49,576 nucleotides of DNA, taken from the sequence record NC_016158.1; one strand, 5' to 3'. This document shows, one piece after another, positions 10,887 through 11,225 of the stretch; the first letter of the stretch is position 1, and the number at the start of each line of letters is the position of its first letter. The position numbers were made by a program, and so were the translations under genes. A model generated the notes under the pieces. That model was given only the letters and a program-made list of their open reading frames with translations. It had not been told where the DNA came from and made no database searches. Source of the stretch: Escherichia phage HK639.

Positions 10887-11225
10887 ATGACCAAATTTTC
10901 TCTGATCCCCAACCCAACTTTTTCTGTGACCGCGAGCATTCCGCGCGCTGGCGCCGAAGACGGCAAGCTGACGTTCACTTTCCGCCATAAAACGTTGGAA
11001 GAGCTGCGCTCCATGGATGCGAAGATGCAAAAGGCTGCGGAAGGTAAAAAGGCTGTTATCGAGCCGCAAGCTGACTATCTCATGGAAATTGTCGAAGGAT
11101 GGGCTCTTCCTGACGAGTTTACCCGCGAAAACGTTATTGTTCTCCTGCAAAACTATCCGCGTGCTTTTGACAGCATCGGCATGGCGTACACCAAAGAGCT
11201 GATGGGGATTCGCGAAAAAAACTGA
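10887..11225 (+). CDS. G: tail assembly chaperone (lambda G-like)
   Basis: 112 aa directly upstream of tape measure; terminates just after an A_AAA_AAC slippery heptamer. Confidence 0.7.
   Translation: MTKFSLIPNPTFSVTASIPRAGAEDGKLTFTFRHKTLEELRSMDAKMQKAAEGKKAVIEPQADYLMEIVEGWALPDEFTRENVIVLLQNYPRAFDSIGMAYTKELMGIREKN

Follow-up and report, generated by a model that had tools for sequence, protein, structure and literature searches.

The tail gene cluster of Escherichia phage HK639 (NC_016158.1) raises the question of how the open frame lying between the genes for a G-like tail assembly chaperone and the tape measure protein comes to be translated. The original prediction, made from the 49,576-nucleotide stretch of DNA analysed here (the window), was that ribosomes shift by -1 at an A_AAA_AAC heptamer at 11216-11222, such that the downstream frame is expressed as an extension of the chaperone in the manner of G and GT of phage lambda. 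In keeping with this, the anatomy of the locus and its conservation among diverged phages indicate that a -1 programmed ribosomal frameshift at A_AAA_AAC very probably makes both the G-like protein of 112 aa and a GT-like fusion of 214 aa.

The tail cassette and the G/T overlap

The G/T pair lies between the tail tube and tape measure genes on the same strand, with a moron (10141..10821) separating the tube gene from G. The features of the region are as follows.

8569..9018: tail terminator (Phage_tail_terminator_5)
9065..9997, + strand: major tail tube gene, Ig-like domain at the C-terminus (Pfam Phage_tail_3, E 2.9e-45; Ig domains also matched)
10876..10880, + strand: Shine-Dalgarno-like AAGGA, 6 nt 5′ of the G start codon (direct reading)
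10887..11225, + strand: G-like tail assembly chaperone gene, zero-frame product of 112 aa, ATG start at 10887
11216..11222, + strand: slippery heptamer A_AAA_AAC in zero-frame phase, forming the final two sense codons of G
11223..11225, + strand: zero-frame stop TGA adjoining the heptamer, a possible pausing element
11222..11530, + strand: T-like -1 frame extension, 102 codons (CTG AGG CAG ... TAA)
11230..11259, + strand: candidate stimulatory hairpin 7 nt 3′ of the heptamer, GGUC-G-CCG-CA-GCGU[UGUAU]ACGC-CGG-GACC
11243..11245, + strand: TTG from which automatic annotation begins a separate 95-aa "DUF1799 protein"
11516..11521, + strand: strong Shine-Dalgarno sequence AAGGAG for the tape measure gene, within the 3′ end of T (direct reading)
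11530..14604, + strand: tape measure protein gene, 1024 aa (Pfam TMP_2, E 2.4e-52; Tape_meas_lam_C, E 5.2e-19)

The flanking genes also match the expected protein clusters, with the tube gene matching phrog_584 (major tail protein, E 1.9e-85) and the tape measure gene phrog_24 (E 2e-226). G is a member of Pfam family Phage_TAC_4 (PF08748; E 6.1e-27), residues 1-112 aligning with positions 1-124 of the 124-position profile at a score of 94.7 bits against a curated gathering cut-off of 21.1, and matches phrog_569 (E 6.3e-41). The T half carries DUF1799 (PF08809; E 1.9e-16) at residues 133-209 of the fusion, scoring 60.5 bits against a gathering cut-off of 26, and matches phrog_680 (E 2.6e-35). 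Translation of 10887..11530 with a -1 shift, the check proposed with the original prediction, gives a single product of 214 aa in which both domains exceed their Pfam cut-offs, in the order Phage_TAC_4 then DUF1799. Both halves are colinear with one fused protein family, since G matches positions 13-107 and T positions 115-213 of the 213-position profile phrog_17368. The label "tail length tape measure protein" attached to phrog_569, phrog_680 and phrog_17368, and copied by RefSeq records (HK578 gp15, EP23), is a propagated misannotation of chaperones.

At the junction 11208-11234 reads ATT CGC GAA AAA AAC TGA GGC AGG TCG (direct reading), with the homopolymer at the slip site being a run of seven A at 11215-11221. 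It had been claimed that the chaperone gene ends two codons after AAAAAAC; this needs correction, as AAA AAC are themselves the final sense codons with TGA directly next. The -1 frame is free of stops from 11171 to the TAA at 11528-11530, the preceding in-frame stop being the TGA at 11168, such that it overlaps G over 11171-11225 (18 codons). The description of this frame as open to 11530, lacking an ATG start and abutting the tape measure gene is borne out, with the first ATG lying at its codon 70 (11429), TTG at 11243 and GTG at 11315 being the only earlier start-type codons, and the T stop sharing one base with the tape measure ATG at 11530 (TAATG). A -1 shift at the heptamer joins 10887-11222 to 11222..11530, giving a product that reads ...MGIREKN-LRQVAAALYTPGP... 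across the junction, and the predicted junction peptide is EKNLRQVAAALY (within ...IREKN-LRQVAAALY...).

The AlphaFold2 model of the 214-aa fusion had a mean pLDDT of 91.9 and a pTM of 0.84, with a helix at residues 93-121 crossing the junction. As the sequences supplied to AlphaFold2 were already fused, this continuous helix is not independent proof of fusion. The model superposes on the 210-aa "tape measure chaperone" of Klebsiella phage Solomon with a TM score of 0.86-0.87.

Slippery heptamers are common in this genome. AAAAAAC occurs 20 times in the window compared with 9.0 +/- 3.1 expected, and 20 in-frame X_XXY_YYZ heptamers were counted among 11,155 codons of long + strand open reading frames (0.0018 per codon), a rate that gives a chance of about 3% of finding one within the 18-codon overlap. 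The case for frameshifting therefore rests on the context and conservation of the heptamer; what raises it above chance is its conservation in diverged relatives together with invariance at synonymous sites (see below). A further in-frame heptamer, G_GGA_AAA at 9952-9958, lies 39 nt 5′ of the tail tube gene stop; the -1 frame entered from it is open for only 37 codons over the terminator region, with no sign of function.

The tail cassette also carries one moron-like insertion and possibly another. The first (10004-10865) lies between the tail tube and chaperone genes, flanked by terminator-like hairpins (10004-10023 and 10848-10865). Its open reading frame 10141..10821 (226 aa) matches phrog_29765 (E 4e-148) and a partial Phage_Tail_Tip domain, has a GC content of 0.485 against 0.525 for the window, and has a 94% match in Aeromonas phage AsXd-1. 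Lambdoid phages (mEp237, mEp213, mEp043 and phi80) carry DNA, for the most part unannotated, that shares 93-97% identity with 10012-10136. E. coli H6 has other genes at this position. Directly after the tape measure gene, 14681-15094 encodes a lipoprotein-like protein of 137 aa (MQKLILVMGIIALVGC...) with a low GC content of 0.469; this is possibly another moron, such as one for superinfection exclusion by a lipoprotein.

Conservation of the frame relation and the predicted slip site

Loci were collected in three groups, comprising 80 close relatives from IMG/VR, 80 further ones found by profile and 12 GenBank phages at 25-57% protein identity. The hosts of the GenBank phages were Serratia, Aeromonas, Cronobacter, Shigella (Dhillonvirus), E. 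coli (Drexlerviridae), Klebsiella (Webervirus), Pseudomonas (three phages) and Ralstonia. A search for near-identical DNA with 9000-14700 against phage genomes matched the moron region alone (10012-10803, in lambdoid and Aeromonas phages), with no match for G/T. The E. coli sequences nearest to the locus belong to chromosomal prophages and share 91-93% nucleotide identity with it; their annotation treats the two halves as separate genes, "phage tail assembly chaperone" and "DUF1799 domain-containing protein".

The frame relation is conserved across this range. A tblastn search with the fusion found 1157 phage records, and every match spanning both halves was split into two pieces in different frames. 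The T-like open reading frame was in the -1 frame in 93 of 94 loci in one set and in 86 of 92 in another, the latter 86 spanning phages of Enterobacteriaceae, Aeromonas, Serratia, Pseudomonas and Ralstonia, lytic ones included. Alignment of the trans-frame proteins was gapless over the junction with the pattern R-x-[KG]-N-L-x-x-A-[AV]-x-x-[LF]-Y, and the 13-sequence fusion alignment contains invariant residues in both the G half and the T half, which are both under purifying selection.

The slip site is conserved in phase rather than merely in composition. In 12 of 13 diverged lineages an in-frame AAAAAAC or GGGAAAC forms the final two sense codons of G with the stop directly 3′, AAAAAAC being found in the enteric, Serratia, Aeromonas, Drexlerviridae and Dhillonvirus lineages and GGGAAAC in Pseudomonas and Ralstonia; TGA or TAA directly follows the final two sense codons in all 13. 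The placing of the predicted shift at 11216-11222 is thus supported by an in-phase heptamer that persists in one or other form in lineages at 25-57% identity. Among 76 unique junctions, 57 have AAAAAAC, 5 have GGGAAAC abutting the stop and 9 have GGGAAAC with one extra codon. The extra codon is seen in an IMG/VR lineage (L165, L167 and L171-L177) reading CTG GGA AAC TCC TAA, that is G_GGA_AAC plus one further sense codon, such that stop adjacency is frequent, yet not universal, in the Phage_TAC_4/DUF1799 family.

Selection on the heptamer itself was apparent among 64 distinct close sequences, in which it was invariant, with GAA AAA AAC showing no synonymous change while the codons just 5′ of it (GGN, ATY, CGN) do vary. 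Over G-T the least variable of 44 bins of 15 nt was 11217-11231. Scoring "any variation" at third codon positions in a run-length test gave no information (p 0.84), since a singleton variant is enough to interrupt a run, and per-bin variability is the usable measure.

One diverged phage departs from the heptamer. Klebsiella phage SegesCirculi (MW021762; Webervirus; L094) reads GCA AAA GTC TAA at 682-691 of its locus, giving AAAAGTC at the site, where the related Webervirus VAC2 has GCA AAA AAC TAA. Since this leaves a single tRNA just the A_AAA tetramer on which to slip, the site has either been weakened or been recorded with a sequence error.

Six loci lacking the -1 relation were inspected (L006/L099, L139, L169/L170, L160 and L168) and none of them supports an alternative mechanism for the window. 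L169/L170 have an additional indel inside T. In L006/L099 (IMGVR_UViG_2619619144_000009) and L139 (IMGVR_UViG_2565956522_000007) the run is A8 not A7, placing G and T in one frame ("REKKL"); these loci bear other frame disruptions, for example an extra G in a G-run of L006, and the A8 is probably due to homopolymer sequencing errors or to decaying prophages. L160 (IMGVR_UViG_2974728900_000001, about 790-830), which is Drexlerviridae-like, has a shorter A run (GTAAAAACTAA) with T in the same frame after the G stop, a layout that resembles stop-codon readthrough or may reflect compensating sequence errors. L168 (IMGVR_UViG_3300044788_000057, about 601-1170) is a distant relative with G and T as a single in-frame open reading frame of about 197 aa, in which some 20 junction residues are absent along with the slippery heptamer. 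This natural fusion raises the question of how, or whether, a G-only product arises there.

Proposed translation of T and the elements around the slip site

For HK639 we infer that the majority of ribosomes would stop at TGA 11223, releasing the 112-aa G-like chaperone, while a minority would slip one nucleotide back on A_AAA_AAC, with tRNA-Lys moving from AAA to AAA and tRNA-Asn from AAC to AAA. Slipped ribosomes would then read CTG AGG CAG and onwards to the TAA at 11528-11530, yielding the 214-aa fusion with its DUF1799 domain. On the model of lambda G/GT, the G portion common to both products would bind along the tape measure protein as a coat, the less abundant T portion would bring in the tail tube protein, and neither would be present in virions, such that the slip frequency would set the G:GT ratio. 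In enterobacteria the heptamer is intrinsically weak, and the abutting stop, possibly together with the hairpin 7 nt downstream, may make it slip more often. It has been reported that the AAC-to-AAA shift is poorly tolerated by E. coli ribosomes (Sharma et al., PMC4066793), which fits a low-level shift since a large excess of G over GT needs a low level, and the slip efficiency may be low unless stimulated.

The search for a downstream stimulatory structure gave one suggestive candidate. The hairpin at 11230-11259 has a minimum free energy of -13.5 kcal/mol, the 40-nt window at its position falls within the top 4% for stability across the G-T region of its own locus, and stability at this position gives a Fisher-combined p of about 7e-5 over 13 lineages that are only partly independent. 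Similar hairpins with equal spacing are found in Serratia, Dhillonvirus, Drexlerviridae, Ralstonia and Pseudomonas homologues. No compensatory changes were found for the hairpin among the relatives and pairs are broken in some close ones, for which reason its role as a stimulator is suggestive and stays at the level of hypothesis. Two other candidates were set aside. A long-range fold in which GGCAGGUC (11226-11233) pairs with 11316-11328, predicted both by minimum free energy and by RNAalifold, was rejected because it was not significant (z -1.24), had no compensatory pairs and starts 1-3 nt after the heptamer. The Shine-Dalgarno-like GGGG at 11204-11207, considered as a dnaX-type stimulator, is not conserved, the third base of the Gly codon varying freely (T in 40, G in 17, C in 5 and A in 2).

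A further reading of the same arrangement, which we consider possible though doubtful, is that the Phage_TAC_4/DUF1799 family has its own cassette rather than the classical lambda one, combining a weak X_XXA_AAC, an AAC near the stop, a hairpin and a slip driven by slow termination. Here AAC would be the last or next-to-last sense codon, and the Ala-Ala and Pro-x-Pro codons conserved in T would form the hairpin, which starts 7 nt downstream. The slip, driven by slow termination at the abutting stop, would come after translocation, when tRNA-Asn occupies the P site and the stop codon the A site, and would not be a tandem slip in the A and P sites. Both routes yield the same peptide, so that sequence cannot separate them; a termination-driven slip, if true, would tie the G:GT ratio to release-factor activity.

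The existing annotation implies instead that G and T are two independent genes and that no fusion is made, T (11243..11530) having its start at TTG 11243, where ribosomes might re-initiate after terminating at TGA 11223. The listing of open reading frames does give a 95-aa frame from this TTG, PGAP assigns a separate "DUF1799 domain-containing protein" CDS in 12 E. coli prophage relatives, with many phage records doing likewise, and a few close relatives (L048, L079 and L084) have ATG at this codon. Set against this, TTG 11243 has no Shine-Dalgarno sequence at 5-9 nt (11233-11238 is CGCCGC), the nearest purine runs, GAGG at 11224-11227 and AGG at 11229-11231, lying 15 and 11 nt upstream, and the aligned position is Leu, Phe or Thr in relatives. 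Across the 13 lineages the earliest T-frame start codon lies at codon 8-75 downstream with conserved T sequence starting at the slip point, such that independent initiation cannot yield the residues conserved at the N-terminal end of T. In 11 of the 13 the earliest start-type codon is at codon 20-75, and the "T" genes annotated in those lineages drop 30-50 conserved residues. The seven residues between the slip point and TTG 11243 are likewise conserved in frame, and independent genes would not require the frozen synonymous sites of the heptamer. Independent translation of T is therefore very unlikely and TTG 11243 is most likely an internal Leu codon, upholding the view that the 95-aa open reading frame, whose TTG lacks a workable Shine-Dalgarno sequence and is not conserved, is a frameshift extension and not a gene in its own right.

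Transcriptional slippage would reach a fusion by another path, RNA polymerase adding one A within the A7 run to give a minority mRNA encoding ...REKKLRQV.... A run of seven consecutive A is present in the window, an eighth A does fuse the G and T frames as in the two database sequences with A8 described above (L006/L099 and L139, "REKKL"), and fusion proteins are known to arise by transcriptional realignment on A/T runs (PMC5009743). What is conserved, however, is the phased X_XXA_AAC and not run length, with GGGAAAC in Pseudomonas, Ralstonia and other lineages having a homopolymer of three at most, and Serratia, Drexlerviridae and Webervirus VAC2 having only A6 (GTA AAA AAC or GCA AAA AAC). 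Moreover, runs of seven A are shorter than the A runs that slip efficiently in E. coli. Slippage by the polymerase is on this evidence slightly less credible still than independent genes. That the heptamer is there by chance and the -1 frame is what a frameshift mutation left of a once-continuous gene has a negligible likelihood: AAAAAAC is frequent in the window, in-frame slippery heptamers occur in other genes and the metagenomic L168 has G and T fused in one frame, but the recurrence of the -1 arrangement with the heptamer in 86 of 92 loci, lytic phages included, and purifying selection on both halves are of a breadth that excludes chance or gene decay.

Programmed -1 frameshifting by the ribosome at A_AAA_AAC, whose sequence-level predictions for a G/GT-type shift were all borne out, thus remains the preferred reading, and it calls for the separate 95-aa "DUF1799 protein" starting at TTG to be replaced by a joined 214-aa GT (10887..11222 plus 11222..11530), both here and in the E. 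coli prophage relatives. It also allows DUF1799 to be interpreted as the T domain in a family of tail assembly chaperones. The understanding of phage tail assembly is unchanged. The comparative set offers a test bed for how a heptamer that works poorly in E. coli reporters serves a conserved low-level frameshift, since it includes both heptamer types (AAAAAAC and GGGAAAC), stops adjoining the heptamer, and a few natural variants with A8 or with the two halves in frame. In the literature no experimental confirmation of frameshifting, by protein analysis or ribosome profiling, was found for the Phage_TAC_4/DUF1799 family, for which the support is comparative.

Comparison with known systems

It is known that G/GT frameshifting is widely conserved in long-tailed phages (PMC5009743), lambda being the type case (Levin, Hendrix & Casjens 1993; Xu, Hendrix & Duda 2004, 2013, 2014; summarised in PMC5009743). 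As in lambda, the HK639 gene lies between the major tail and tape measure genes, a -1 shift near its 3′ end on X_XXA_AAN would give an abundant short and a rare C-terminally extended product, and the T frame lacks a start of its own and terminates where the tape measure gene begins. The two differ in that lambda slips on G_GGA_AAG, 15 nt before the G stop, whereas the stop abuts A_AAA_AAC in HK639, and in size, G being 112 aa in HK639 and 140 in lambda and GT 214 and 279 aa, respectively. No homology to lambda G/T was detected, the best blastp match having an E value no better than 0.2 and the 13-sequence profile giving nothing significant against lambda GT. The Pfam scan of HK639 G/T found only Phage_TAC_4 and DUF1799, families other than those of lambda. 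The claim that the lambda mechanism is reproduced here therefore holds at the level of sequence arrangement but does not extend to the proteins.

Frameshifting has been confirmed experimentally for lambda, P2, L5, TM4, phiC31, HK022 and HK97 (PMC5313236), with 6-7% frameshifting in reporters for HK97-like prophage chaperones (PMC3711429). HK97 gp13 and its frameshift product (PDB 2OB9), a tail assembly chaperone with an experimentally confirmed frameshift, occupy the same genome position and use a -1 shift, and HK97 likewise has a moron adjoining the cassette (gp15). No sequence similarity was found between HK639 G/GT and HK97 gp13 and, taken with the differing Pfam families and the lack of similarity to lambda, this places the HK639 pair outside the lambda protein families, as an analogue. 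In Acinetobacter phage Loki an AAAAAAC motif abutting the stop has been described for gp12/gp13 (PMC5313236), where the frameshift is itself a prediction and the match to HK639 is a distant one between predicted structures (Foldseek E 1.6e-5, 15% identity in the structural alignment).

Outside tail genes the site recurs in the insertion-sequence cluster A_AAA_AAC_1. This cluster uses the same heptamer in enterobacteria with proven -1 frameshifting, and shows reduced synonymous variability with no established stimulator (PMC4066793). It differs from the phage locus in that the frameshift serves a transposase gene, with unrelated proteins and another biological purpose. We take this cluster to be IS1.

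The closest counterparts are the tape measure chaperones, annotated with a frameshift, of T1-like phages and relatives (Klebsiella phage Solomon, E. coli phage U136B, and Serratia phages Smarc2 and Scapp), which belong to the same protein family at 28-45% identity. These phages are mostly lytic and of other genera, whereas the HK639 locus is nearest to E. coli chromosomal prophages. In GenBank and UniProt, homologues are already entered as frameshift fusions. The frameshift has been reported in the genome papers of Klebsiella phage Solomon and E. coli phage U136B, and Serratia phage Smarc2 has the same A_AAA_AAC plus stop with a joined CDS annotated as "pre-tape measure frameshift protein". 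As such the frameshift is real and conserved, but ordinary, and already annotated in phages related to HK639.
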